Positions 1,238 to 26,400 are shown, counted from the stretch's first letter. The stretch is 64,000 nucleotides of DNA from Kiritimatiellia bacterium (GCA_045598585.1 JAZLMG010000023.1:6051-70050); one strand, 5' to 3'. Program-made: numbers and translations. The notes: generated by a model not told the origin, from the sequence alone.

Positions 1238-1933
1238 TCAGGTAATGTTTTTAGTTTGCCTGATAAGTTCATCCGAGAGAAACTTCGGGTTGTTTCTATC
1301 TTCTTCCGAAAGAGTTTCCATCCATTTAATAAACACGTCGACGAAGTGAAGAGCAGACTTCGGCTCTTGCTCAGCTTTAGGGCCGAGAAGAGCTTGAAAG
1401 GCACATTTAGTGCCTTCAATCTGCTCTTTGCTGAGACGACGTAACGAGAGGCTTGTATAAGCTAGCTCCCAAGCTTCGTTTATCTCCGCTTGTGAGCTTG
1501 TGTTGCTTATATTAGGTTGTTCCCGGGACAACTCATTGTTGTTTCCGAGACAACTCACTTCGGTTTTTGCTTTGGGCTTAACTTCCTCTTTTGGAAAACA
1601 TAAACGATAATTGTTGTGCGCATGCTTTGGAACGATTTCTTTTCCGTTAGCTTTGATCTTGACCGGTGATTTCGTTTTCCAAACTTTTACATATCCTTTT
1701 TTCTTAAGGCGCCCAAGTATCCTACTTACCGTTGGCTCATCAGCAAGATGAGTCATTGAGGCAAGCAACAAACCGGAAGGATAGCATTCGTAGGTTTGAT
1801 CATTACACTTATGCGCCAGCGCAGCCAAAAGGGCTTGCTCGGAAACATCAGTGCCGCCATTATCGGAATCGTCACTTAATTTAACGAACTTAGGTACTTC
1901 GTTATAAACTCTGTCAACTAAATGATAGCCCAT
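1238..1933 (-). CDS. winged-helix (HTH_36-like) protein resembling plasmid/phage replication initiators
   Basis: 231-aa ORF. The segment ALLAALAHKCNDQTYECYPSGLLLASMTHLADEPTVSRILGRLKKKGYVKV fits the HTH_36 pattern (…cfPS…la……s..tv.r.i..L.kkGli…). It is adjacent to the iteron array and is the last gene of a tightly packed three-gene operon. Confidence 0.65.
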   Translation of the reverse strand: MGYHLVDRVYNEVPKFVKLSDDSDNGGTDVSEQALLAALAHKCNDQTYECYPSGLLLASMTHLADEPTVSRILGRLKKKGYVKVWKTKSPVKIKANGKEIVPKHAHNNYRLCFPKEEVKPKAKTEVSCLGNNNELSREQPNISNTSSQAEINEAWELAYTSLSLRRLSKEQIEGTKCAFQALLGPKAEQEPKSALHFVDVFIKWMETLSEEDRNNPKFLSDELIRQTKNIT

Positions 1934-1938
1934 AACGA

Positions 1939-2499
1939 TTAGGCCTTCTTTGTCTTCTTGGTTTTCTTGATGGTCTTCTTAGGTTTAAGGATCTCATCAA
2001 GTGAAGGAAGATGCATATACTCGACTTCAGCCCAAAGTTTATTATAGGCAATATCGATTTGAGCAAGAAACTTTTTCATCTCATCTTCACTCATCTTAAA
2101 CGAATCCGACTTTTTAAGACGCTCAAGATAATGAAGGCAATCGACGAATTCGACTGAGGCGTGCTCAGCGCCGATTTCTTTCGAAAGTGCCGCGGTTAAA
2201 AGAAAGGCACGATACAATTTCGAAAAGAACTGTTGCCAAGACTCGAAATATTCGGATGCTCTTCGATGAGAAATCCCGCTACCCTTTTCACCGGGAATAA
2301 AAACTACCGGAGTAGAAGTGAATGCTCTTTTTATTACACCTAGCAGATATTTAGAGGGCTTTTCACAATCATCCAGATCGAGAGCTTCTAACTTCTCAAG
2401 CCACTTGTCGACTTCTTCCATCGTATATGGAATCTGCCTAAGCGCCATCTCATCATCGAAAGCAAGCTTAGGTGTTTCGGTAATCTCATGCGTGTCCAT
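1939..2499 (-). CDS. hypothetical protein with a lysine-rich C-terminus
   Basis: 186-aa ORF, 5 nt from the downstream gene and 16 nt from the upstream gene. I recognise no family. It ends in KPKKTIKKTKKTKKA. Confidence 0.55.
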   Translation of the reverse strand: MDTHEITETPKLAFDDEMALRQIPYTMEEVDKWLEKLEALDLDDCEKPSKYLLGVIKRAFTSTPVVFIPGEKGSGISHRRASEYFESWQQFFSKLYRAFLLTAALSKEIGAEHASVEFVDCLHYLERLKKSDSFKMSEDEMKKFLAQIDIAYNKLWAEVEYMHLPSLDEILKPKKTIKKTKKTKKA

Positions 2500-2515
2500 A
2501 TTGCACCCTACTTCT

Positions 2516-3637
2516 TTATGCCAACTTCTTCAAGTACTCGGCGAGAAAGAAATCGTAAATCTCGTAACCTTCAGTTCCCGGATAGACGATTTCTTTGTCG
2601 ATCAAAATATCCAAAGCCGATTTGACGCTGCTCGCCGCTCTGAGAGCATATTTATTTATAAAGTCTCCCGCTTGAGGGGCTTTAACTCGCCCTTCTTTAG
2701 CAATGGCCTTTGCCAAACGTTGTGCTCCATCCGGTAAAAGCGAGACAACTTGCTGACGATCATATTCATTCGCCTTTACCCGATCCTCGATTACCGCCTC
2801 GACCTGCTCAAAAGTCGTTACGCCTTCATGTGCGGCATAAAGACTCCAGAGTATCGTCTGCATATACCATGTTATGCCGCGGAATCGTGCGTACAGCCGT
2901 GCAAATACTTCGCGGTCCAACTTCAATGAAGCGGCCTTGAAGAACTTATCGGCAAAATCGAAATACGCCTCTTCCTTGATCACATCGAGGGGCATCATCA
3001 AAGTCGATTGATAGAACGGCTTCTTGGGCGAAATGAAAATATCACGAATGATGTGTTGCTTGGAGTCCGAGAAAATGAACTGCGCCGGACAAAACTGAAT
3101 ATGCGAGCGAAGAATTGCTTCGACATCGTGTTCCGGATATTCCCTAACCTGTTGAAATTCGTCGATTGCGATGACCGTCGGACAATTTCGCTCTTTCAAG
3201 TAATCGAAAATTTGCTCGAGCGTATGAACCGAATCGGTACCTGTCGCTAGACCGAAGGTGATCGTTGGCTGACCTGTTTGCGCGTCATAAGAAATAGATC
3301 CACGAGCCGCTTGCATCAAATGTTTTGCCGCGCCTTGCAACTTCTCGAAAGGAGTATCCAACTTGCCTAGCACCGATCTTGCGAAGAGATCGACAAATTC
3401 CGCAAGATTCTTCGTCCCGAAAATATCAATATAAATCGTTTGATACTCATGTTCTTCCGTCAAACGACTAAAGACATTATGAATCAACCCGGTTTTGCCA
3501 TAGCGACGCGGCGCAAGTAAGGTAACATTTGCGCCATTTCGGATATCTTCACAGAGTTTTCGAGTCTCTTCCACACGATCACAGAAGTACTCAGGACCGC
3601 GATAACCGCTAATAACGAAAGGATTGATCATTTTCAT
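2516..3637 (-). CDS. AAA-type ATPase of the Arch_ATPase/DUF234-like family
   Basis: 373-aa ORF. Walker A is LLAPRRYGKTG and Walker B is VIAIDEFQQV. The C-terminal part is wHTH-like. Overall layout is typical of COG1672-type ATP-binding proteins. Confidence 0.8.
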   Translation of the reverse strand: MKMINPFVISGYRGPEYFCDRVEETRKLCEDIRNGANVTLLAPRRYGKTGLIHNVFSRLTEEHEYQTIYIDIFGTKNLAEFVDLFARSVLGKLDTPFEKLQGAAKHLMQAARGSISYDAQTGQPTITFGLATGTDSVHTLEQIFDYLKERNCPTVIAIDEFQQVREYPEHDVEAILRSHIQFCPAQFIFSDSKQHIIRDIFISPKKPFYQSTLMMPLDVIKEEAYFDFADKFFKAASLKLDREVFARLYARFRGITWYMQTILWSLYAAHEGVTTFEQVEAVIEDRVKANEYDRQQVVSLLPDGAQRLAKAIAKEGRVKAPQAGDFINKYALRAASSVKSALDILIDKEIVYPGTEGYEIYDFFLAEYLKKLA

Positions 3638-3644
3638 GCAAGAT

Positions 3645-3673
3645 ATTATATCACATATTTTTCGTCACGTCAA
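3645..3673 (-). promoter_or_regulatory. sigma70-type promoter TTGACG-17 nt-TGATATAAT, positioned for a leaderless ATPase mRNA
   Basis: On the minus strand: -35 TTGACG at 3673-3668, a 17-nt spacer, and extended -10 TGATATAAT at 3653-3645. The ATG (A at 3637) begins 8 nt after the last T of the -10. There is no Shine-Dalgarno sequence in between. Confidence 0.6.
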
Positions 3674-3770
3674 TCCCGTCACGACTTTTCCGTGATGGCC
3701 ATAACGGGCGATAAGCGAAAGGTGTCTCTTTAGCGCTGCAGGGGAATGATGCTTAAATTCCGGCCCAACC

Positions 3771-3808
3771 GGAAAAACAAACCCCGCCGGAGAACGACTC
3801 AAGCGGGG
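3771..3808 (-). terminator. intrinsic terminator downstream of the lipoprotein gene
   Basis: Minus strand reads CCCCGC…loop…GCGGGG followed by TTTGTTTTTCC. Stems are at 3803-3808 and 3782-3787. It lies 29 nt after the stop at 3837. Confidence 0.6.
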
Positions 3809-3836
3809 CTTTATGATATACCAATGCCTCTATTAT

Positions 3837-4256
3837 TTATTCGAGCGTTATATTCTTTTCTTGCAGGGCAGATTTGCCATATTTATCGTATCGATAATAA
3901 TATAACATCTCTCGTTCGTTAAGCGTAATTGCGTCAACTGCACCTTGAGGCACACCCCATACAATCGAGATAGGCCAAAGGAGGAGATTAGTAAATCCGT
4001 AAACACATTGCACGGTATCATTACCCTGTCCAAAGGCAAGGTAGAAATTTCCAATGCCGGGTAAAATATTCAATCCTCCCGCGACGAGTGAAGAATTAGG
4101 CGCTTCAAAATCACCCGCCGGTCGATCTAGCGTTATCCCGTTTGCCCGTAGCATCGCTAAATTACGCTTTTCTTGATATGTTAATGACACGCAACCAGCG
4201 AATATCGTTCCAATCGTGATGCACATCATAGCAATCATTACTCTTGTTTTATCCAT
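3837..4256 (-). CDS. small lipoprotein, unknown function
   Basis: 139-aa ORF. Signal peptide with lipobox (…TIGTIFAGC|VSL). One further hydrophobic or glycine-rich segment (LVAGGLNILPGIGNFYLAFG). Low GC. Confidence 0.7.
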   Translation of the reverse strand: MDKTRVMIAMMCITIGTIFAGCVSLTYQEKRNLAMLRANGITLDRPAGDFEAPNSSLVAGGLNILPGIGNFYLAFGQGNDTVQCVYGFTNLLLWPISIVWGVPQGAVDAITLNEREMLYYYRYDKYGKSALQEKNITLE

Positions 4257-4292
4257 TTATCTTTCCTTCTTTTGTTTGCGCTGTTTTATTGG

Positions 4293-4328
4293 CAAAAAGA
4301 AAGAGCGCAATCTTTCGATTTGCACTCT
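4293..4328 (-). terminator. terminator-like hairpin plus U-run in the leader of the lipoprotein gene
   Basis: Minus strand: AGAGTGCAAATC-gaaa-GATTGCGCTCT followed by TTCTTTTTGCC. The stem is imperfect, with one mismatch and one bulge. Confidence 0.35.
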
Positions 4329-4360
4329 GCTGAAGGTCTTAGGATACCAAAACTGGAATG

Positions 4361-4387
4361 CAAAGAAAGACGCGCTCAAATGAGCGC
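4361..4387 (-). terminator. terminator-like hairpin plus U-rich tract (possible sRNA end or attenuator)
   Basis: Minus strand: GCGCTC-attt-GAGCGC followed by GTCTTTCTTTG. It lies about 150 nt downstream of the putative -10 at 4525-4533. Confidence 0.35.
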
Positions 4388-4524
4388 ATCCTCGCTTACA
4401 TGCCGTTCCAGTTTGAAAGTTTCCTAAGTTTTCAGCAGAACGTTCTGTAGCGTTGACGCTAAATTGTTTTCCGCGGCACTTTTGCCGCGCATTCAAACGG
4501 ATTTCTCCCCGCTGAACGATTTAT

Positions 4525-4533
4525 AGTATATCA
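4525..4533 (-). promoter_or_regulatory. putative extended -10 box TGATATACT
   Basis: Plus strand AGTATATCA is TGATATACT on the minus strand. It points toward the structured 260-nt region upstream of the lipoprotein gene. Confidence 0.3.
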
Positions 4534-4821
4534 TATTTGCCGCGGTGACTTCAACAACATTCGCACGGCCAGTGATGTCAAAACGGGCAAAAGAATAGAG
4601 TGAAAGTGCAAGGTTTTGCCCGAGATGGAGCGAAAAGTCGGGAGCGAAATGGATATCGCTTGAGACTAGTGATTTCGGGGATGGGAGTGTCTAAACTGAC
4701 TCCGTTGACTTTGGTGGATGAGCGGGAGAGCTTTTCGCGGAAGGGTCGGGCAAAACCTGGAACGGACGACGAAATGCGAGATAACTCAATTCGGTACTAT
4801 ACCAAAAGATCGTTTGGTGCT

Positions 4822-4851
4822 GAACAAAAAACAATTTGGTGCCACACCAAA
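4822..4851 (-). terminator. intrinsic terminator after the coiled-coil gene
   Basis: Minus strand: TTTGGTG-tgg-CACCAAA followed by TTGTTTTTGTTC. It lies 40 nt after the stop at 4892. The stem is AT-rich, so confidence is moderate. Confidence 0.4.
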
Positions 4852-4891
4852 ACTTCTTCCGGTGCAGCACCAAATCTAGCTCGGCCTACGC

Positions 4892-5608: not shown

Positions 5609-6833
5609 TTTGACCTTTCAACTCGCAGCCACCATAGATGAAGAGGCGGCAATCAATCGGACCGTTGAAGAACGGAATGCGAGTTTGGTAGTAAAGATTT
5701 ACGAGATGCGAAAGCTCGGGGCTACCGGTGATGAGAGCACCCGTCCAACCGAAGCACTTCTCATTAAGGAAGGTTCCGATGCGCTCGTAGAGAGGCGCGA
5801 GCTCCTTCGGGTCGCCAAGACGAATACCGTACTCGGGATTGAAGAAGATATGCCCCTTCTCACCTTCGGGAATGGGAGTCTCGGCAAAGTCGCACGCCTT
5901 GAACTCGATGTAAGGAGCGACGCCTGCGGCAATGGCATTCGTGTGAGCGTTCTCGACCGCTTCGGGAGAGATGTCGGTCGCGATGATGCGCGGCAGATTT
6001 TGAGTCGTCTCTTTGTCTTTCGCTTCAAGGACAATCTCTTTCCAAATTTGTTCAGGCGTCGCTCCCGCCATCTGACGAGGCGCGACTTTAGGCGCACGCT
6101 CTCCGGGGATGATACGCTGATAACCTTTCAAACTCTGGAACGCAAAGTGACCCTTCAAACTTCCGGGCGCGCGATTCATCGCCATCATCGTAGCTTCGAT
6201 AGCCGGAGTTCCAGATCCGCACATCGGCGAGAGGAAGGGAGTATTTTTCTTCCAACCCATCGCCATCAAACACGCGGCAGCGAGAGTTTCCTGCATCGGC
6301 GCGGAGCCGGGAATCTTGCGATACCCGCGCTTCGAAAGAGGTTCGCCCGAAGTATCGAGATAGATGATGACTTCATTGCGTTCCCAATAAACGAAAACCG
6401 CGGCACCGATATTCTGACCACCCGAGTCGGGACGACGCTGGCACTTTTCGCGCATTCTGTCGGCAATGGCGTCCTTAGTGTACAACGAAGGAAGACGCGT
6501 ATCGCGAATCGTGTAGTTGTGAACGATCGAAGAAACCGAGAAGTACCCATCGGCATCGAGGAGGTTTTCCCAGTCGATAGAGTACGCCGATTCGTAGAGG
6601 TCGCGAATGTTGCGGCACTCCGTGCGAAGTAATGGAACGAGTACTCGGTGAGCCGTACGAAGCTGAAGATTCAGCTTCATCATGTCTCTCATATCGCCGC
6701 GCACGACGACCGTGTTTTCGGTAACTTCGATGGGCTCGTATCCGAGCTCACGAACTTCGATCTCGGTCCAACGCGAAAGTTCCTTCGCGCAGGAAATGAT
6801 GATCGGATAATTTTTGTCGGTCCAGATTTTCAC
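5595..6833 (-). CDS. THUMP-domain class I SAM-dependent RNA methyltransferase (RlmL/UPF0020-like)
   Basis: SAM-binding motif LSPMCGSGTPAIEA and catalytic-loop motif FFNPEYGIRLG, preceded by a THUMP-like N-terminal half. I moved the start to GTG 6833-6831, which forms a GTGA start/stop overlap with dnaN. The track ATG at 6878 would overlap dnaN by 49 nt. Confidence 0.8.
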   Translation of the reverse strand: MKIWTDKNYPIIISCAKELSRWTEIEVRELGYEPIEVTENTVVVRGDMRDMMKLNLQLRTAHRVLVPLLRTECRNIRDLYESAYSIDWENLLDADGYFSVSSIVHNYTIRDTRLPSLYTKDAIADRMREKCQRRPDSGGQNIGAAVFVYWERNEVIIYLDTSGEPLSKRGYRKIPGSAPMQETLAAACLMAMGWKKNTPFLSPMCGSGTPAIEATMMAMNRAPGSLKGHFAFQSLKGYQRIIPGERAPKVAPRQMAGATPEQIWKEIVLEAKDKETTQNLPRIIATDISPEAVENAHTNAIAAGVAPYIEFKACDFAETPIPEGEKGHIFFNPEYGIRLGDPKELAPLYERIGTFLNEKCFGWTGALITGSPELSHLVNLYYQTRIPFFNGPIDCRLFIYGGCELKGQNGLH

Positions 6834-7924
6834 GAGATACGAAGAGGCATGAGAACGTAGAGGAAAGGAATGGAGCACTTGATAACCGCAGGCGAGTGAC
6901 CGTCGTTCAAGTTGATCGTGACTTCATCATCATCGATGGCCTTCAAAGGATCCATGACGTAAGAAGGATTGAACATAATCTCGATGTTCTCACCCGCGTA
7001 CTTAATCGGCACTTCATCTTTCGCTTCACCGATGTCGGACGCGGCGGAAGTTACGGTAAGCTTGCCGGCGGAGAAAATGAGCTTAGTCGAGTGAGCTTCG
7101 TCCATCGTCATAACGCTCGCACGATCAAGCGCGTTCAAAAGAAGCTGACGATCAATAGTGATCTTTTCCTTCGTTTCCTTCGGGATGACCTGACTATAGT
7201 TCGGATAAGCTTCTTCCATGAGCTTCGAGTAAATCATCATCGAACCCAAGTTGAAAGAAATCTGACCCTTTTGAATCATGAGAGTAATCTCTCCTTCTCC
7301 GGAGAGAGAACGCATAAGTTCCTGAACGGCCTTGAAAGGAAGCACGATGTCCTTTTCGGCAGTCTTCGAAAATTCCATTTCTTTTTCGACGAGAGCGAGA
7401 CGACGACCGTCGGTTGCAACCATCGTAAGCTTCTCATCCTTGAAGCTCATGAGAACACCCTTCAAGCTACGACGAGTATCATCCTGGCTCGCGGCATAGC
7501 TGGTCTTGCGAAGCATTTCGCGTAAGGTTGCCTGCTCAATCGAGTAAATAGAAGCTTCTTCATCTTTAGGAAGACGAGGAAACTCGCTTTCAGCCATACC
7601 GGACAAACGGAACTTCGCACTGCCGGCGGAGATGGTCGCTTTTTCATGAGCGTCAACTTCTACGACAACGGGACCTTCGGCCATCTTCTGAATCGAGGAG
7701 AAAAGAAGCTTGACGGGAAGAGTTGTGGAACCGGCTTCTTCAACTACGCATTCTACGGTCGTCTTGATCGAAATGTCAAGATCGGTAGTGGTCATGGTAA
7801 GCTCTTTACCGACGGCTTCGATTTTGACGTTCTGCAAGATAGGCAAAGAAAGCTTGCCACCTACAATGTTCTGAACACCTTTAAGTCCTTCGATGAACTT
7901 ATTTCTGAGTATTGTGAATTTCAT
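6830..7924 (-). CDS. dnaN: DNA polymerase III beta sliding clamp
   Basis: MKFTILRNKFIEGLKGVQNIV… is the canonical DnaN N-terminus. The length (~364 aa) and position directly downstream of dnaA also fit. The track ORF extends 8 codons further, to a GTG at 7948. Confidence 0.95.
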   Translation of the reverse strand: MKFTILRNKFIEGLKGVQNIVGGKLSLPILQNVKIEAVGKELTMTTTDLDISIKTTVECVVEEAGSTTLPVKLLFSSIQKMAEGPVVVEVDAHEKATISAGSAKFRLSGMAESEFPRLPKDEEASIYSIEQATLREMLRKTSYAASQDDTRRSLKGVLMSFKDEKLTMVATDGRRLALVEKEMEFSKTAEKDIVLPFKAVQELMRSLSGEGEITLMIQKGQISFNLGSMMIYSKLMEEAYPNYSQVIPKETKEKITIDRQLLLNALDRASVMTMDEAHSTKLIFSAGKLTVTSAASDIGEAKDEVPIKYAGENIEIMFNPSYVMDPLKAIDDDEVTINLNDGHSPAVIKCSIPFLYVLMPLRIS

Positions 7925-7948
7925 GTTGCCTGTTCCCTTTTCTACCAC

Positions 7949-8191
7949 CTAACTTGTATTATATCAAATACTGCTACAGAATGAAATACTTATCTTATTA
8001 CTATTATTATTTTGTTGATAGTGTTGATAACTGAGTCTGTAGCCTTGCTTTTATTGATTGAGCCTTTTATTTGATATGTGAATAAGGTTTTTGATTGGAG
8101 GTTTAACTTTGGTTGATTAGTTTAGTCGGTTGTTAAGAGATGTTGATAGGTTATAGCTTTATTGACAATATATATTGGCTTTAAGAGCAAG
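7949..8191. promoter_or_regulatory. AT-rich dnaA-dnaN spacer with a DnaA-box-like cluster (oriC candidate part)
   Basis: TGTTGATAG at 8013-8021, TGTTGATAA at 8022-8030 and TGTTGATAG at 8141-8149. These are the reverse complement of (T/C)TATCAACA, one mismatch from TTATCCACA. Four weaker TTGAT(T/A) copies start near 8054, 8070, 8090 and 8112. Confidence 0.55.
7958..7966 (-). promoter_or_regulatory. extended -10 box TGATATAAT upstream of dnaN
   Basis: Plus strand ATTATATCA at 7958-7966, 34 nt upstream of the ATG at 7924. Confidence 0.4.
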
Positions 8192-9601
8192 TTATTTGGT
8201 TATCTCATCGGAGAGTTGATAACCTAAAGATCCTAAGATTTCCGAGATTGAATTCTTAAGTTCAGGTTCGGTTTCGATGCGCTTTTCAATAGTTCGTACG
8301 CCATGGAGAATGGTAGCATGAGACTTATCGAAGCTCTTGGCAATCTCCGGAAGAGAGTGAACGGTATACTTTCTACTGATGAACATCGATACTTGGCGCG
8401 GAGTTACCAAGGTTTGAGTTCTTTCGGCTGAAAGAATCTGAGACATGGTAACATTGTACTTCTTAGCTACTGCGCTTTGAATTTCTTCAACCGTAAGACG
8501 CTTTCGAGATTGTTCTTTTTCGATGGAGTCTTTAAGTAAGTATTGAAGCATGTTGTTATCGAGTCTCACATTAGGTTGTGAGGATAAGAAGATGGCAACT
8601 TTACTTAAAGCCCCTTCCATAGCTCTTACATGGCTCTTAATGTGATAAGCGATAAACTCGAGAAATGTACTTTCTATTTGAAGATTGGAGTCTTCACATT
8701 TCTTTTTAAGAATGGCTAATCGAGTTTCATAGCTAGGAGATTCGACTTCTTGAACAAAGCCGCCTTCAAAGCGAGAAATAAGACGAGCTTCCAAAGCAGG
8801 TAAGTACTTAGGAGCTACATCGCTCGTCATTACGATCTGCTTCTTAGCTTGCTGAAGAGCATTGAAAGTATTGAAGTATTCTTCCTGAATATCTTTACCA
8901 CGCTGGAAGAACTGAATGTCGTCTAATAGCAGTACGTCTACGGAACGATACTTGTTTCTGAAAACAGGTAACTCGTTTCTTTGCATGTAGTTGACGTACT
9001 CATTCAGAAACTGTTCGGCTGTAAGATAGCAGATTGCAAGCGACGGATTTTTTTCCTTAAGTTCATTTCCGATGGCTTGCATAAGATGGGTCTTACCAAG
9101 ACCTGTACCGCCATGAATGAATAAAGGATTATATCCGGTCTTGCCAGGATTTTCAACTACCGCCTTGGCAGCTGCAAAAGCGAAACTGTTAGAGGGACCT
9201 TTGACGAACTTTTCGAAAGTATAATCGTCATTAAGAGGCATTGTAGAGACGAAGCTTGCAGCTTTTGGAGACTCTATAGGAGAAATCATCTGAGTCTTGG
9301 TTTTCTCAACCAGAATCGGAGCTATAGGTTCTTCTACTTTGAAGATCATGCCTTTATTGCCGGCTCCCGCAAGCATCATGCAGCTTTTGATCTTATCAAG
9401 ATGATTTTCACGGAACTTTTCCGCGGCGTATTCGTTACTGCAGTAAACGACAATATCACTCGAAGTTTCTTCGAGCTTATTAACCAAACCGAAAAGTCTT
9501 TCAACTTGGCTCTTTTCTTCGGCACTTTGAATAGTCATTATGTAGAACTGCTTCACGCGGTCCCACATCGAGTTCAAAGCTTCATTTGGACTTGTATTCA
9601 T
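8192..9601 (-). CDS. dnaA: chromosomal replication initiator DnaA
   Basis: 469 aa. Walker A is GGTGLGKTHLMQAIGNEL. Also seen are the box VII region and the C-terminal DNA-binding helix-turn-helix (…SLPEIAKSFDKSHATILHGVRTIEKR…). Confidence 0.97.
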   Translation of the reverse strand: MNTSPNEALNSMWDRVKQFYIMTIQSAEEKSQVERLFGLVNKLEETSSDIVVYCSNEYAAEKFRENHLDKIKSCMMLAGAGNKGMIFKVEEPIAPILVEKTKTQMISPIESPKAASFVSTMPLNDDYTFEKFVKGPSNSFAFAAAKAVVENPGKTGYNPLFIHGGTGLGKTHLMQAIGNELKEKNPSLAICYLTAEQFLNEYVNYMQRNELPVFRNKYRSVDVLLLDDIQFFQRGKDIQEEYFNTFNALQQAKKQIVMTSDVAPKYLPALEARLISRFEGGFVQEVESPSYETRLAILKKKCEDSNLQIESTFLEFIAYHIKSHVRAMEGALSKVAIFLSSQPNVRLDNNMLQYLLKDSIEKEQSRKRLTVEEIQSAVAKKYNVTMSQILSAERTQTLVTPRQVSMFISRKYTVHSLPEIAKSFDKSHATILHGVRTIEKRIETEPELKNSISEILGSLGYQLSDEITK

Positions 9602-9784
9602 CTTCTTTACTCTATTTCAAATTTTCGAGCAATATTATATCATATATTATGAGGAGTGAGTAAAATAAAGATGTCTTCTTATGTATACAAGTTATCAACA
9701 AATATTGTAGATATCAACAGAAAATGTTAATATGTTAATTATTTTTTGGATATTCCTGCCAGATATTGTCGGATATAGGTGGAC
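9602..9784. promoter_or_regulatory. AT-rich mnmG-dnaA spacer with DnaA-box-like sites and a tandem AT-rich repeat (oriC/DUE candidate part)
   Basis: TTATCAACA at 9692-9700 and ATATCAACA at 9711-9719. A tandem ATGTTAAT-ATGTTAAT at 9724-9739 is followed by TATTTTTT. Confidence 0.5.
9634..9642 (-). promoter_or_regulatory. extended -10 box TGATATAAT upstream of dnaA
   Basis: Plus strand ATTATATCA at 9634-9642, 32 nt upstream of the dnaA ATG at 9601. Confidence 0.45.
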
Positions 9785-11581
9785 TTAAATGTGTCCCCTT
9801 TTAATGATAATAGCGAGGACGGAAATGTCGGCAGGATTCACTCCCGAGATTCTCGAGGCCTGTGCGAGAGTTTCCGGACGATACTTTTTCAGCTTTTCAC
9901 GACTTTCGAAACGAACTGCGTTGCACTTATCGTAGTCGAGCCAATGAGGAATCTTGATGTTTTCGTCGAGCTTTGCCTTTTCAGCCGCCTTGCGCTCTTG
10001 TTCGATGTATGGAGCATAATGACGCATAATATCCAATTCTCCACTGGCTCGTTCGGAGAGTGTTGACTCGATATCCGGATCGTTCTCAGTAACGAGTTTG
10101 TTGAGTAAGGCGTACTCTTGTTTAAAGCAAGATATTTCTTCTTTACTTCTCACACCGATTTTTTCAGCATAGGGAAGCAAGCGATAGATTGCATTATCTT
10201 GTCTTAAGAGTAATCTGCGTTCAGCGCGGCTGGTGAACATTCGATAAGGCTCATCAGTCCCCTTTGTTACCAAGTCATCTATCATTACACCGATGTAGGC
10301 GTCCTGACGACTGAGCACTATTTGATTCTCGCCTTTTACATTTAGCGCGGCATTTATACCTGCCATGATACCTTGCGCAGCAGCTTCTTCATAGCCCGTT
10401 GTACCGTTAATTTGACCGGCGAAGTATAGATTGGAAATTCGCTTTGATTCGAGCGTATGTTTCAGTTCACGCGCATCTATTCCGTCGTATTCAATTGCGT
10501 ATGCATAGGCAAGAAATTCGGCGGCTTCCAATCCGGGTACAGATCTTACCATCTTCTCCTGAATTTCTTTAGGTAAACAGCAACTCAATCCATTAGGATA
10601 TATTATTTCTCCTTCTGAATCTTCCGGCTCGAGCATTACATGATGCTGCTCTGCGGTTGCAAATCTTACAATTTTATCTTCAATACTTGGGCAATATCTT
10701 ACACCCGTACCCTCAATCGCCCCACCATAAAGAGCGGACTTATCCAGATTATCTCTTATGATTTGGTGGGTTATTGGGGTTGTATGAGTCATCCAACACG
10801 GCTTCTCAGGTAGTGTTCCACATGGAACACCGCCCAATTTTACTTGATTTGTTCCACGTGGAACAGTTGAATTTCCGATAAGGTTATTATGTTGCACGTG
10901 GAACAGAGGGCGAGGTAAAAGACCATCTTGTCGCGTACAAACCTTAAAATTGCAGCTTGATGCAGTGAGTCGTGGAGGTGTTCCGGTCTTGAGGCGGATT
11001 AATTTAAATCCGAGTTGAGATAAAGAAGTTGATAATTCATCAACCGCAGGACGATTATCGCCTCCTGATTTTTCGGATTCTTTGCCGATCCAAGTTCTGC
11101 CGCGAAGGGTAGTGCCGGCAGTAATAACGACGGTTTTTGAGTTGATTTCACCGTGATTTTCGGTGGCTATTCCGATGACTTTATTGTCCGATGTAAGTAT
11201 GCGAATCGCGGCATCTTCGATAACCGTAAGATTAGTTTGATTTAATACAACCGATTGCATGCGCTCTGTATACTCATTCTTAGCGCATTGAGTACGGGTT
11301 GCGTGAACTGCCGGACCACGAGAAAGATTGAGAGTCTTCGATTGAAGGGCGGTGGCATCAGCGTTTTTACCCATCTCTCCACCTAATGCATCAAGCTCGT
11401 AAACGAGGTGACTTTTGGCTAGCCCGCCGATTGAAGGGTTGCACGGCATACGCCCGATAGCATCGATTCGGGTTGTGATGAGAAGGGTATTGAGGCCCAT
11501 ACGAGCTGAAACGAGAGATGCTTCGCTTCCGGCATGACCGCCTCCAACTACGATAACGTCAAATACAGGATAATTATTCAT
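9785..11581 (-). CDS. mnmG: tRNA uridine 5-carboxymethylaminomethyl modification enzyme MnmG (GidA)
   Basis: 598 aa. N-terminal FAD motif is [15 protein letters not shown]. Also present are [25 protein letters not shown] and [18 protein letters not shown]. Confidence 0.97.
10814..10905. other. cluster of three parS-like 16-bp palindromes inside mnmG
   Basis: TGTTCCACATGGAACA at 10814-10829, TGTTCCACGTGGAACA at 10850-10865 (perfect palindrome) and TGTTGCACGTGGAACA at 10890-10905. The known ParB-site consensus is TGTTNCACGTGAAACA. Confidence 0.6.
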
Positions 11582-11591
11582 AGCACTGATT

Positions 11592-11600
11592 ATTATATCA
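11592..11600 (-). promoter_or_regulatory. extended -10 box TGATATAAT upstream of mnmG (near-leaderless)
   Basis: Plus strand ATTATATCA at 11592-11600. The last T of the -10 lies 11 nt from the A of the ATG at 11581, which leaves a leader of only a few nt. Confidence 0.4.
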
Positions 11601-11769
11601 AATTATACACTGATTTGTGAACAACTTTAGCGGAATAATTATGAGACAAATTAATATTGCAAAACTTGCAGTTTTGTAATGATTTCCGCGATAATAGTTA
11701 ATTATTATACCTTGTCAAGAGGGAAAATGGCGACTGATATCATCCGATATCTTCAAGTTATCAACAGGC

Positions 11770-11798
11770 TTGCGATTTGGTGGAGAATATGATATAAT
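11770..11798 (+). promoter_or_regulatory. sigma70-type promoter TTGCGA-17 nt-TGATATAAT for the plus-strand metabolic block
   Basis: -35 TTGCGA at 11770-11775 and extended -10 TGATATAAT at 11790-11798, 28 nt upstream of the GTG at 11826. A TTATCAACA box at 11758-11766 abuts the -35. Confidence 0.5.
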
Positions 11799-11825
11799 AT
11801 CAGCGGAAATTGAGAGTTAAGCCAA

Positions 11826-12683
11826 GTGAAAGTAATATATCTTTTTATCGATGGCGTAGGTGTCGCGGCACCTTCTGTTGATAACCCGGTCAATCCCGAG
11901 GTTTGCCCTACGCTTTGTCGATTGATAAAAAATCACTCTAAACCGATTGACGCGTGTCTAGGCGTGGAAGGGCTTCCTCAATCCGCTACCGGTCAGGCCA
12001 CGATGTTCACCGGCAAAAACTGCCCCGAGTTGATGGGAAAGCATTGCGAAGGTTTTCCGGGACCCGCCTTAAGAAAGATAATCGAAGATAACAATATTTT
12101 TCTCCAGCTCAAGCGCCGCGGAAAGAAAGTGAAATTCGCCGATGCGTACTTGATCGATGATGTGGGCCTACTCGAGAATCAGCGTTTCAAGTCGGTAACG
12201 ACCGTAATGGCGCTTACAATGCCGGAAGTCATTTCTACCGTTGAAGATCTAGTGAGCGACGGGGCGGTAATGCAGGATTTGACGCGGGAAACCATTCAAG
12301 ATCGATACCCGGAAATCCCCGTCATCAGTCCCCAGCGCGCGGCTGAGCATCTTTTCCAAGTCGCTCAGAAGAATGATTTCACCTTGTTCGAGTTCTTCCA
12401 GACCGACGTTTCCGGACACTCGATGGACTATGAAAGAGCATGCAATGTTCTACGCACCTACGATAAATTCCTTGCCGTGTTGCTGCGATTCGTCGAAGCG
12501 GCGGGTATAACGTTGGTCATGACCGCAGATCACGGGAATATAGAATGCATGAATGAAAGAGGGCATACCTTGAATCCGGTTCCCTTTATAACCTTCGGTC
12601 CCCGCGAAAAATTCCTCCGCGAGAGAGTGGAAAATCTTACCCAAGTGACCCCCGCATTACTTGCGGCTTTCGATCAATTTTGA
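11826..12683 (+). CDS. metalloenzyme-superfamily protein (alkaline-phosphatase / cofactor-independent phosphomutase-like)
   Basis: 285 aa. N-terminal metal-ligand region is LFIDGVG, followed by LPQSATGQATMFTG and a C-terminal TADHGNIE motif. This is typical of the iPGM/phosphopentomutase-like metalloenzyme domain. The start is GTG. Confidence 0.6.
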   Translation: MKVIYLFIDGVGVAAPSVDNPVNPEVCPTLCRLIKNHSKPIDACLGVEGLPQSATGQATMFTGKNCPELMGKHCEGFPGPALRKIIEDNNIFLQLKRRGKKVKFADAYLIDDVGLLENQRFKSVTTVMALTMPEVISTVEDLVSDGAVMQDLTRETIQDRYPEIPVISPQRAAEHLFQVAQKNDFTLFEFFQTDVSGHSMDYERACNVLRTYDKFLAVLLRFVEAAGITLVMTADHGNIECMNERGHTLNPVPFITFGPREKFLRERVENLTQVTPALLAAFDQF

Positions 12684-23400: not shown

Positions 23401-26400
23401 TTGGATTTTGGATACAGACGATAAGGATGTCGAATCTTCGCCTTATTCCACGATTGCGATGGCGCTCCAAGGTGAGCAAGACGAATTGGCCGGCTATAAG
23501 TGGCTCTCGGCTGATGTTGTTAAGAACACTCGTCAGTTCGTCGTTCGCTTCAATGACAATACGGGCGCTTTCTCGATTTGCCGCGGTGACTATCAGGATT
23601 TCAACCACTGGACTGACGCGGCTGCGAAGTCGGAGGATAAGTTCGTTGCTCATGCGGGTCAAGTCGGTGATGATGGTGTGACGATTCCGATTGCGAACTC
23701 GATTCTTCAGCAGCGTTACCCGTCCGATCCCTCCAAGAATGTTTTTGAGGATTGGCAGGAGAATGTTTCCAGCGATGAGCTCTGGCAGGAAAAGTTCACC
23801 ACCACATGGAATGAAAACGAGCAGGCTCGCACCGGCACGACGCTTCTTGGTACGACTACCGGTGAGCGCACCTTCAACAACGGCTGGGTTGGGCATAACT
23901 TCATGTACGTGAACGAGTCGCTTAACAATCTCTTCTCGTCGAGCTATAATTCTCGCGCGGCGCTTTTGGAAGGTAAGGGCCGTGGCTCGTTTGAATGCGA
24001 TGAGTCTTCTCGTTATCCCGATGGTATCGGCGAAATCAACTTCGATGCGCGTCTCGGTCAGCAGCATACATATGACCGAATCTCGACTTATCAACCTAAT
24101 GGTGACGACTTTACCGATAAGGACTATCTTGTCTCGACTCGCGTCGTGATGTCGTCTAGGGCGACGAGCGCGACCGATCTCGGTTTCGATGGTCAGGGCA
24201 CGGTTTCGATCTTCGCTTATCATAACGCTAGCGGATCCTATGAATTTCGCATGAAGCGCCTTTCGCGCAATGAGTTGGAGCTCGGCCTTTATCGTTGGTA
24301 TCAGGAAAAGACCGGTGCGCCTTTGAAGGTGAAGGAGATCTACCGCGCCGTTCGTAATGCCACTAGCTATGATAGCGACACCAACGCGGGGCGTGTTCCC
24401 GGAACGACGCTTTGCTCTACGAAGCTTGCCGACGGCGAAGGTGAGAACACGACCGCGTATGTTGCCTTCTTGAGCGTTAAGTCGATTTATGAAGGAGAGG
24501 GTGCGAATCGCACCTTTGTCGGCAACCAGCTCTATGCCGGTTTCACGAATAACAATGGTGCCGGCGGCGCCTTCAGCAACCGTCCTTCGGTTGCGACCGA
24601 TATTGCCGGTCGTGAAATGAAGTGGCACTCTTTCTACGCTCAGGATCGCGGCTTTACCGATAGTAACAATCGTCAGGTCAAGCCGCTTCGTAACGGTACT
24701 TTCGGCTTCCTTTCGACCGACTGTCCCGCGCGCTTCATGCGTCCTCAGGTTCATAACGCGCTCGATCGCATCTCCGGTAGGAATCTCGCGTATGCCGACA
24801 CGATTGCGCTTCCGCCGGTCCGCGTTGACGATGGTAATACTTACATAAAGAGTCAGAAGAACGATAGTGACGCTAAAAACGATTTCTGGGATCACTGGTA
24901 CATTGCACCCTCTGCCGATATCGGTAAGTGGAATGTTTTGAATGAGGATTATTATGGTATCGTGACGCCCGAAGTCACTCAGAAGATCGTTGTCTCGACT
25001 CGCCCGAAGAACAGCTCCGAATGGACCGAGTTCAAGAAAGTCGATGTAGCTTCCTTTAACTATTCTTCGATTACCATCCCCGCTCACACGACAACTCCGA
25101 CTTGCGTCCGTCTCTCGACGTATGATGATGGCGATGATTCGCCGCGTTGTGATGTGATTCTTGACAACCTCGAAATGACTCAGTGGCACGCCACGACTAC
25201 GGCGAATCTTTCTTCGCTTGATAACGACAAGTTCGTGTTTACCGGCGTCTGGACCGAAAGCGTGAAGGGTTCGAAGAAGGCGGAGTTCTGGCCGCTTCGC
25301 GTGGCGACAGATGAGCTGCAGACGATTCGCTCGCCGTTCCTTGAGCACGGCATCGGCGCGATCTCCATCTCTTACGATCTTGAGACGCTTGATGAGCGCG
25401 CCGTGCTTGACATCGAATACGTTTCCGCCGAAGATTTGGCCGATTACAATGTAGTCAATTATACGAACAACAGCCGCTATCAAGACGAGTGGCAACAATA
25501 TAAGCGCTTTAACTACGATGATCTCGTTGCTGCCGGCGGTCGTATAACCGAGTATATCGGTTTGCGCGGCAAGCCGTCGCTCATTCGTCTTCGCGTTCCT
25601 CAGTCCGTAATTGAGGCCGCCCACACAGATACCGACAATGGTAAATACGGTCGTATCGACATTAAGTCGATTGCGGTATGGGACGAGCCGAATGTCGACG
25701 AGCGCTCTTGGACGGCGTGGAACGTTCGCGTCGCTAACGCGAATACTGCCGCGAAGGAATATGTTTCTTACGACAAGCTCCTTAACATCGATAGCTGGCT
25801 TGATCGTAGCGAAACCTCAGGTATGTCGATGGAACTTAATAACGGCATTCTCGATATCGCTGAAAACGATCCCGACTTCTATCGTGCGCACCTCCCGTAC
25901 ATTCAGTCTCCCGCGCTCACGACTCCCGAAGACAAGAACTCCGGCATCACCGTTGGTGAGATTAATTTCCGTGCCCGTAAGAGCGGCTTTGATACGGAAG
26001 ACGCCTGTGTCGGCATTTATGCGGTTAAAGACTTGAAGGGCGACGATAAGGATATGGTGCTTGTCGGTACTACCAATCTTACCTCCACCGCTTGGCAGAA
26101 TATCACGATCAAGAATAAAGAGTCCGGCGTGATGGCGATTCGTCTCGTCATCATGGATAAGGACGCGGAAGGCAATCCTGTTCATTCCGACCGCGCACTC
26201 TTCGATGAACTCTCGGTCACCGAGCGTGTCGACCCGAATGTCGTCGTTACCTTCGCGCGTCCGTTCCGTAGCGATCTTAGCTTCACCGCCCCCGTCGCTA
26301 CGATTACCCTTCCTGAAGAGCAGCCGCTCTGTCGAGAAGAGTTCGGTATCCAATGCGAACTCGCGTTGAAGCAGCTCGAGCCGGTGATTATTCCCGAGAC

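Follow-up and report, generated by a model that had tools for sequence, protein, structure and literature searches.

A predicted parS array translated within mnmG, close to dnaA, in a Kiritimatiellia bacterium

The sopC locus of plasmid F consists of 12 tandem 43-bp repeats, each of which contains a 16-bp SopB site. In Bacillus subtilis, parS sites are reportedly found inside genes as well, for example within spo0J, and a parS word is observed inside the spo0J homologue of Domibacillus (L008). Dense parS clusters situated beside parAB have been described in Myxococcus, Corynebacterium and Caulobacter, and experiments have established TGTTCCACGTGGAACA as parS in Pseudomonas putida and P. aeruginosa (PMC7022226). 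Here we have investigated three words of this type in a 64-kb window, that is the whole stretch of 64,000 nucleotides analysed, from a Kiritimatiellia bacterium (JAZLMG010000023.1:6051-70050), in which they are packed into 92 bp of the mnmG (gidA) coding sequence. Comparative sequence analysis makes it highly probable that the three 16-mers constitute a chromosomal centromere, a predicted parS array that keeps the reading frame of mnmG open and is translated as part of a surface loop with predicted disorder, 1.2 kb from dnaA. In the literature, no report was found of parS inside mnmG or of a parS map for these phyla, and GidA is not mentioned in a paper on signature indels of the Planctomycetes-Verrucomicrobia-Chlamydiae (PVC) group.

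Three parS-like words in a variable loop of MnmG

The window was searched on both strands with the consensus TGTTNCACGTGAAACA, up to three mismatches being allowed. Three 16-bp inverted repeats within two mismatches of this consensus were detected, numbered here in gene order (Table 1), agreeing with it at 15, 15 and 14 of the 16 positions for sites 1, 2 and 3, respectively. No further word with two or fewer mismatches is present elsewhere in the 64 kb, and relaxation to three mismatches added a single match, at 24539; approximately 0.9 matches are expected by chance and the observed count was reached in none of 100 shuffles. The words, their positions, their agreement with the consensus and their reading in two different frames of mnmG are all as described in the original prediction, which was made from this sequence alone. 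parS identity is suggested by the match to the universal consensus and by site 2, which is identical to the validated Pseudomonas parS and to the Myxococcus-type parS. The start-to-start distances between the three sites are 36 and 40 bp, with gaps of 20 and 24 bp. In a repeat search of the site region the shared sequence ended at a 16-17-mer, the spacers being unrelated, and regular head-to-tail units with related spacers, as in sopC, were not observed in the window. A recent 36-bp duplication giving rise to sites 2 and 3 was considered and ruled out because their spacers are unrelated. Neither Rfam families nor tRNAs were detected in the window.

The host gene encodes a complete MnmG. The product matches Pfam GIDA (PF01134, E = 6e-144) and SAM_GIDA_C (PF13932, 2e-23), so that the FAD-binding and the C-terminal helical domains are both present in an intact open reading frame (ORF), and the closest comparison with a solved structure is PDB 2ZXH (2e-156). 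The sites are located, as originally proposed, between KTGTPPR and the conserved motif downstream, and site 1 overlaps the position of the ancestral P-x-P-x-F-S motif. The segment between GTPPR and RYCPS, which is 90 aa long in the window, measures 69-70 aa in Bacillota and in Alpha-, Gamma- and Deltaproteobacteria; three Planctomycetota and one Chlamydiales metagenome-assembled genome (MAG) have the same length, and no parS word was found at the loop position in any of these sequences. The difference of 21 aa agrees with the original prediction, in which the segment of Escherichia coli MnmG was put at roughly 20 aa shorter. AlphaFold2 returned an overall mean predicted local distance difference test score (pLDDT) of 82 and a predicted template modelling score (pTM) of 0.86; residues 224-254, the site-bearing stretch, have a pLDDT <50 and no secondary structure. 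On this model the parS-hosting loop can probably accept an arbitrary peptide.

The insertion is variable in length among relatives. In site-bearing relatives the GTPPR-RYCPS segment spans 74-260 aa, and among the segments of the closest homologues its length rises with the number of sites (Spearman rho 0.43, p = 1e-5). The insert of one relative, L013, is built of tandem units of ~66 bp and that of another, L086, of tandem units of 120-156 bp, each unit carrying one parS, which suggests in-frame duplication as the mode by which the insert grows. The reading frame is open across the insert in every locus checked. Tandem repeats of ~120-156 bp were observed in L086 at nt 1040-1700 (a Joint Genome Institute metagenome contig; P0067) and in P0057, where the insert also contains runs of CATGTAGAG, read HVEHVEH, and PTCSTC(P/S)TWL peptides; these look like degenerate or half parS units generated by slippage.

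The tandem units bear on a further explanation, that a selfish or structural palindromic repeat, of the repetitive extragenic palindromic (REP) or miniature inverted-repeat transposable element (MITE) kind, landed in a tolerant loop. Several copies in a short stretch, and their inclusion in longer tandem repeats in L086 and L013, are consistent with such an element. However, dispersed copies with conserved flanks were not observed, the words being confined to one locus in 64 kb with unrelated flanks, and the same position in the same loop of the gene is conserved across classes. The probability of this explanation is therefore considered negligible.

Conservation of the DNA word

A protein search with the window MnmG, for which no exact record was found, gave 120 closest homologues with 62-100% identity, one of them from a named Kiritimatiellae MAG. 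In all 120, the GTPPR-RYCPS segment includes one to five footprints of the word, namely the peptides FHVE[HQ], CSTWN or VPRGT, which are TGTTCCACGTGGAACA translated in frames 1, 0 and 2, respectively. Among the 97 distinct versions of the segment, two such footprints are present in 74, three in 13, four in seven and five in one; at least two are thus retained in 95 of the 97 at protein divergence of up to 38%. The first footprint is always in frame 1, fixed over the ancestral P-x-P-x-F-S, and later footprints occur in any frame.

DNA was compared in 26 related loci, which contain 58 perfect TGTTCCACGTGGAACA words, also the lineage consensus, and seven with one mismatch. The perfect words are distributed over the three reading frames (35/14/9), and entropy per position of the 16-mer is ~0 bits. 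In contrast, entropy is 1.0-2.0 bits at the third positions of codons in the invariant flanking motifs, KTGTP and RYCPS, indicating that synonymous divergence is saturated, and the spacers between sites are unalignable already at 86% protein identity. The word is thus conserved independently of its coding context. Combined, these sequence comparisons show selection acting on the DNA word and not on the peptide, as the original prediction held: the same 16-mer, in three frames and in more than 130 related species, is invariant. Alignment of MnmG orthologues, which that prediction had proposed as a check, revealed that insertion and palindromes co-occur and that the insertion is absent from site-less lineages.

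These observations also bear on the proposal that the words function at the RNA level, in which case hairpins formed by the mnmG transcript would influence its translation, stability or processing. A 131-nt stretch of the mRNA does fold better than its shuffles (-40.7 kcal/mol, z = -3.5). A strong fold is, however, an automatic by-product of palindrome repetition. A hairpin could accept G-U pairs and compensatory substitutions, whereas no such substitution was seen and each base of the word is invariant. The number of copies and the distances between them differ freely from one relative to the next, and in other phyla the word is also intergenic. An RNA-level element is extremely unlikely on this evidence.

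Variation between close relatives is concentrated outside the words. In four related gut-metagenome strains, sites 2 and 3 are unchanged in all four and seven spacer positions vary; the one-mismatch form of site 3 is thus common to these strains. At 10894, C is present in three of these strains and generates a perfect site 1 palindrome; the mismatch of the window at this position is therefore strain-specific. A relative with 96% identity (L083) likewise has a perfect word at site 1 and the same one-mismatch form of site 3. Among public sequencing runs, sequence related to window positions 10300-11300 is confined to gut and faecal metagenomes and to runs of one coded host organism, at most 45% of the sampled words of this region being shared; the window derives from a Kiritimatiellia-like bacterium that is associated with the gut and of which several strains co-exist.

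One refuting case named at the outset, an insertion that persists without its palindrome, does occur, in two Akkermansiaceae (L015 and L063). An insert of ~18 aa is kept and the loop site has decayed to six mismatches; a perfect parS lies elsewhere within mnmG or just upstream in both. On sequence comparison this looks like relocation of the site, the insert being left as a scar, rather than a refutation. The same pair must be weighed in asking whether the words are relics, inherited from ancestors that used them by a lineage that has lost ParB or uses other sites. Mismatches in two of the three window sites, the variation of site 1 between strains and the persistence of the Akkermansiaceae insertion with a decayed site would all be expected of relics. 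Against this, neither the perfect site 2 nor site 3 varies among the four strains and at least two footprints are kept in nearly all segment versions, while an unselected 16-mer would decay as the spacers have done. We therefore regard a relic origin as very unlikely.

The start-to-start distances between neighbouring sites in the 97 insert variants cluster at 27-28, 37-40, 45-48 and 54-58 bp. This corresponds to a periodicity of ~9-10 bp in a sample that is phylogenetically correlated and in which spacing is tied to the reading frame; it could reflect helical phasing of ParB dimers.

Origin neighbourhood, distribution and ParB

dnaA starts 1.2 kb from the cluster, within the ~1-3 kb originally proposed. 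Proximity to the origin, a property of parS, is observed in the window's clade. In the window, dnaA and dnaN come after mnmG, DnaA-box-like words cluster in the three flanking spacers and an RlmL-like methyltransferase gene follows dnaN in the same orientation; the gene order mnmG-dnaA-dnaN-rlmL is kept in relatives L081 and L082. The DnaA-box-like word of this genome is TTATCAACA / TGTTGATAA and not TTATCCACA. Exact copies of TTATCAACA number four in the 64 kb, at 8022, 9692, 11758 and 11876, all around dnaA and mnmG, and when up to one mismatch is allowed, 10 of 37 words are located within 8013-11884. The AT-rich spacer between dnaA and dnaN, with one exact box and three with one mismatch, is the strongest candidate for oriC.

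Distribution of the arrangement was investigated by two scans of GTDB. In the first, one genome per species was scanned for doublets, two perfect words 8-38 bp apart, yielding at least 120 loci; 120 were sorted by tblastn against marker genes in 8-kb loci. Tight perfect doublets occur in many phyla, and the notion that they are special to this group was rejected, only the intra-mnmG position being specific. Among the 120 loci listed, the doublet is within 300 bp of mnmG but outside the gene in 31, beside parA in 22, beside rsmG in 15, inside mnmG in 10 and beside parB in five; in 16 the distance to the closest marker gene exceeds 300 bp and in 21 the 8-kb locus has no marker gene. The 10 intra-mnmG doublets are labelled Kiritimatiellia, Pontiella, Opitutales, Puniceicoccaceae, Oceanipulchritudo or Verrucomicrobia, except for L185, labelled 'bacterium' only, and include the cultured Pontiella sulfatireligans F21. 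Doublets of Planctomycetota adjoin parAB, as they do in most phyla.

In the second scan, anchored on a perfect word 95-125 nt past the KTGTP codons, at least 120 matches were obtained. Labels among the matches listed are Opitutia, Verrucomicrobiia, Limisphaerales, Puniceicoccales, Kiritimatiellia and Victivallales, together with two 'bacterium' (L323, L352) and one 'Bifidobacteriaceae' (L327). The last, an uncultured Bifidobacteriaceae contig (CAYWCK010000001.1; 53.7% GC), has the loop site in an MnmG 44% identical to that of the window and is probably a misbinned Verrucomicrobiota contig. A single frame-1 site is present in 82 of 105 genes of the anchored set, and extra sites occur just upstream or downstream of mnmG in 23 loci. 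In relatives, the flanking 8-20 kb contained no further parS word with two or fewer mismatches, apart from those immediately next to mnmG. The scans show that the predicted intra-mnmG arrangement occurs in more than 120 species and is common to Kiritimatiellia, Opitutia, Verrucomicrobiia and Victivallales. Judged from these sequences, arrays of several sites and a neighbouring dnaA are traits of the Kiritimatiellia clade of the window, whereas parS in or at mnmG is much wider.

Other associations of the word with mnmG were also observed. Doublets of Bacteroidota (e.g. L096, L098, L119, L137, L154 and L158) lie tens of bp from the start or stop of mnmG, no parAB being detected in these 8-kb loci; parS thus seems to have been linked to mnmG for longer, more tightly and more generally than to parAB. 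A second recurrent intragenic position is the variable linker of the MnmG C-terminal domain, at ~aa 521-528, where the word is read MFHVEH in an Akkermansia MAG, VSRET in Geobacterales and Desulfuromonadales, and VSREI, with one mismatch, in Pelagibacteraceae. The loci concerned, with the nucleotide position in mnmG, are L015 (1574), L070 (1563), L080 and L019 (1584) and L051 (1382); in Litorimonas the intragenic site is at aa 461. It seems that mnmG recurs as a host of parS in several phyla. In a Candidatus Binatia MAG (L040), whose segment is of normal length without insertion, CGTTTCACGTGAAACA at nt 665 of mnmG is read SFHVKH at the same P-x-P-L-F-S position as the PVC site 1, which looks like convergent use of the same codons.

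Several points weigh against a centromere. Two of the three window sites deviate by one base. dnaA is within 8 kb of mnmG in 2 of 105 other Verrucomicrobiota loci, and nearness of the mnmG sites to the origin is shown for the window's clade only. Neither ParA nor ParB is encoded in the 64-kb window, as the original prediction had noted, when searched by tblastn with Domibacillus Soj, Spo0J, Noc and RsmG and with hidden Markov models (HMMs) from 80 ParB and 70 ParA sequences, and no RsmG homologue was found in the window by tblastn. ParA and ParB were equally absent from ~25 related mnmG loci and 110 further 8-kb loci. A scan seeded with two Planctomycetota ParBs gave no locus labelled Verrucomicrobiota or Kiritimatiellota, its matches belonging to Planctomycetota, Omnitrophota, Bacillota and others; two 'uncultured bacterium' ParB matches (L215 and L229; 64-67% GC, parS beside parB) are not informative. 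ParB in this lineage is inferred from the conservation argument and one literature statement, that ParABS homologues and 1-10 parS sites per genome are present in all 12 OMM12 genomes, including Akkermansia muciniphila (PMC10197239). ParB is mentioned neither in the Kiritimatiella genome paper nor in the transposon sequencing (Tn-seq) paper on Verrucomicrobium spinosum and its supplements.

The failure of tblastn, HMMs and the ParB-seeded scan to find ParB, together with the position of the sites in a gene that immediately precedes dnaA and is read in the same direction, would be compatible with operators of another DNA-binding protein, for example a regulator of a co-oriented mnmG-dnaA unit, the likeness to parS being resemblance only. 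All 16 bp of the word are, however, identical to an experimentally validated parS, and neighbouring phyla place the same word, in tight doublets, beside parA, parB, rsmG and mnmG. Most site-bearing Verrucomicrobiota are without an adjacent dnaA, so that an operator specific for dnaA fails to explain the conservation. We consider operators highly improbable, and a centromere the preferred interpretation.

The remaining features of the window flank this neighbourhood. On the + strand, three ORFs follow one another in 19614-49080: the first (280 aa) has an N-terminal methylation motif of the prepilin type, the second (2,681 aa) gave no Pfam match and the third (6,654 aa) contains Laminin_G_3 together with bacterial TSP3 repeats. 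Such genes for giant surface proteins are characteristic of the group. Past the rlmL-like gene, 1238-3637 on the - strand encodes a weak HTH_36 protein, a 186-aa ORF without match and a 373-aa ATPase_2/AAA protein, and the adjoining 1.25 kb (3638-4891) has no ORF of at least 150 aa. The region 1238-4891 may be a mobile or defence island.

Table 1. Positions in the 64-kb window of the predicted parS sites, their host gene and the neighbouring origin features.
Feature	Position	Strand	Sequence	Description
dnaN (beta clamp)	6830..7948	-		three DNA_pol3_beta Pfam domains
dnaA-dnaN spacer, candidate oriC	7949..8191		TGTTGATA / TTATCAACA	AT-rich; these DnaA-box-like words repeated
dnaA	8192..9601	-		Pfam Bac_DnaA (2e-63) and Bac_DnaA_C; directly downstream of mnmG, same orientation
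mnmG-dnaA spacer	9602..9784			DnaA-box-like words at 9692 and 9711
mnmG (gidA), host of the sites	9785..11581	-		intact 598-aa ORF; Pfam GIDA and SAM_GIDA_C; 2ZXH
Variable mnmG segment, GTPPR to RYCPS	10700..10969	-		90 aa
Predicted disordered MnmG loop, residues 224-254	10820..10912	-		AlphaFold2; bears the three sites
Predicted parS site 3	10814..10829		TGTTCCACATGGAACA	mnmG frame 2, (G)VPCGT; 1 mismatch within central CACGTG
Predicted parS site 2	10850..10865		TGTTCCACGTGGAACA	mnmG frame 2, (T)VPRGT; perfect 16-bp palindrome
Predicted parS site 1	10890..10905		TGTTGCACGTGGAACA (+ strand)	mnmG frame 1, (L)FHVQH; 1 mismatch to TGTTCCACGTGGAACA
Spacer 5' of mnmG	11582..11825			DnaA-box-like word at 11758; a further one at 11876

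Proposed function and comparison with known parS systems

The central proposal of the original prediction, a centromere-like cluster hosted by an insertion in mnmG, is strongly supported by the comparative data, from which we infer, by analogy with characterised parS sites, that ParB binds here. Following the scheme of ParB-CTP (cytidine triphosphate) clamps, ParA and SMC set out in reviews of ParABS (PMC7022226, PMC7333895), ParB dimers would recognise each palindrome, bind CTP and close into sliding clamps. The clamps would spread over the mnmG-dnaA-dnaN origin region and form a partition complex that would be segregated by ParA and would load SMC. The close spacing of the sites would raise the rate of ParB loading and provide redundancy, and redundancy would permit one-base changes in single sites, provided that at least one site remains perfect. 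As far as alignment and structure prediction show, MnmG pays for hosting the array with a lineage-specific insertion of variable length in a loop predicted to be unstructured.

Historically, an ancestral parS may have flanked mnmG, as it still does in many phyla. In this group the sites would have moved into the gene and stayed although parAB is no longer nearby, the array growing and shrinking by in-frame duplication and decay. Intragenic parS, as in Bacillus spo0J, is known to work, and transcription through the array should therefore be no obstacle. It is conceivable, although unlikely, that ParB-CTP clamps inside mnmG gate read-through transcription into dnaA, or are cleared by it. If so, assembly of the segregation complex would be coupled to expression of the replication initiator, and the translated array would be a dual-coding cassette able to evolve, in that the number of copies, expanding and contracting by in-frame duplication, would set the strength of the coupling to dnaA.

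The arrangement would represent a natural case of overlapping codes, in which a gene has been lengthened repeatedly and unequally to carry a DNA-binding site that is translated in any frame. It is likely to be the centromere of the poorly studied Kiritimatiellia, Opitutia, Verrucomicrobiia and Victivallales. In protein-only databases, FHVE[HQ], CSTWN and VPRGT in MnmG could serve as a marker of parS sites, and in metagenome bins a parS-bearing mnmG can mark the partition locus and, in the window's clade, also the origin. Cultured strains in which mnmG parS could be tested are Pontiella sulfatireligans F21 and Rubritalea profundi. In V. spinosum, mnmG (VSP_RS00005, the first gene of the record) is non-essential by Tn-seq (PMC12283558 supplement), and this species may suit recoding of the loop if its mnmG carries parS.

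Compared with known systems, intragenic parS sites and origin-proximal clusters as such are already well known. The array resembles that of P. aeruginosa and P. putida in the identity of the 16-bp palindrome, in the small number of copies near the origin and in the occurrence of single-base variants beside perfect sites (PMC4368675, PMC7022226). It differs in density, three sites being located in 92 bp of one ORF without parAB nearby, whereas the four Pseudomonas sites extend over ~15 kb. With the dense clusters beside parAB, and with the doublets of Acidobacteriota, Bacteroidota, Bacillota and Planctomycetota, it shares closely spaced sites and the mnmG-rsmG-parA-parB neighbourhood. Unlike those intergenic clusters, it is inside mnmG, uncoupled from parAB and, among the matches listed, restricted to Verrucomicrobiota, Kiritimatiellota and Lentisphaerota.

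As with the B. subtilis spo0J site, parS is situated in a translated gene and read as ordinary codons, and that precedent indicates that an intragenic position is compatible with function. The B. subtilis intragenic sites are single sites in pre-existing codons; mnmG, in contrast, has acquired an insertion of variable length whose sole conserved content is the DNA word, in one to five copies and in any frame. As in F sopC, ParB-type sites are tens of bp apart, and tandem units are present in relatives L086 and L013. Unlike sopC, the window has unrelated and unequal spacers, and its array is chromosomal and translated. New, in comparison with all of these, are a translated, frame-independent array of variable copy number within a lineage-specific insertion of a housekeeping enzyme, its conservation across several classes and its uncoupling from parAB.

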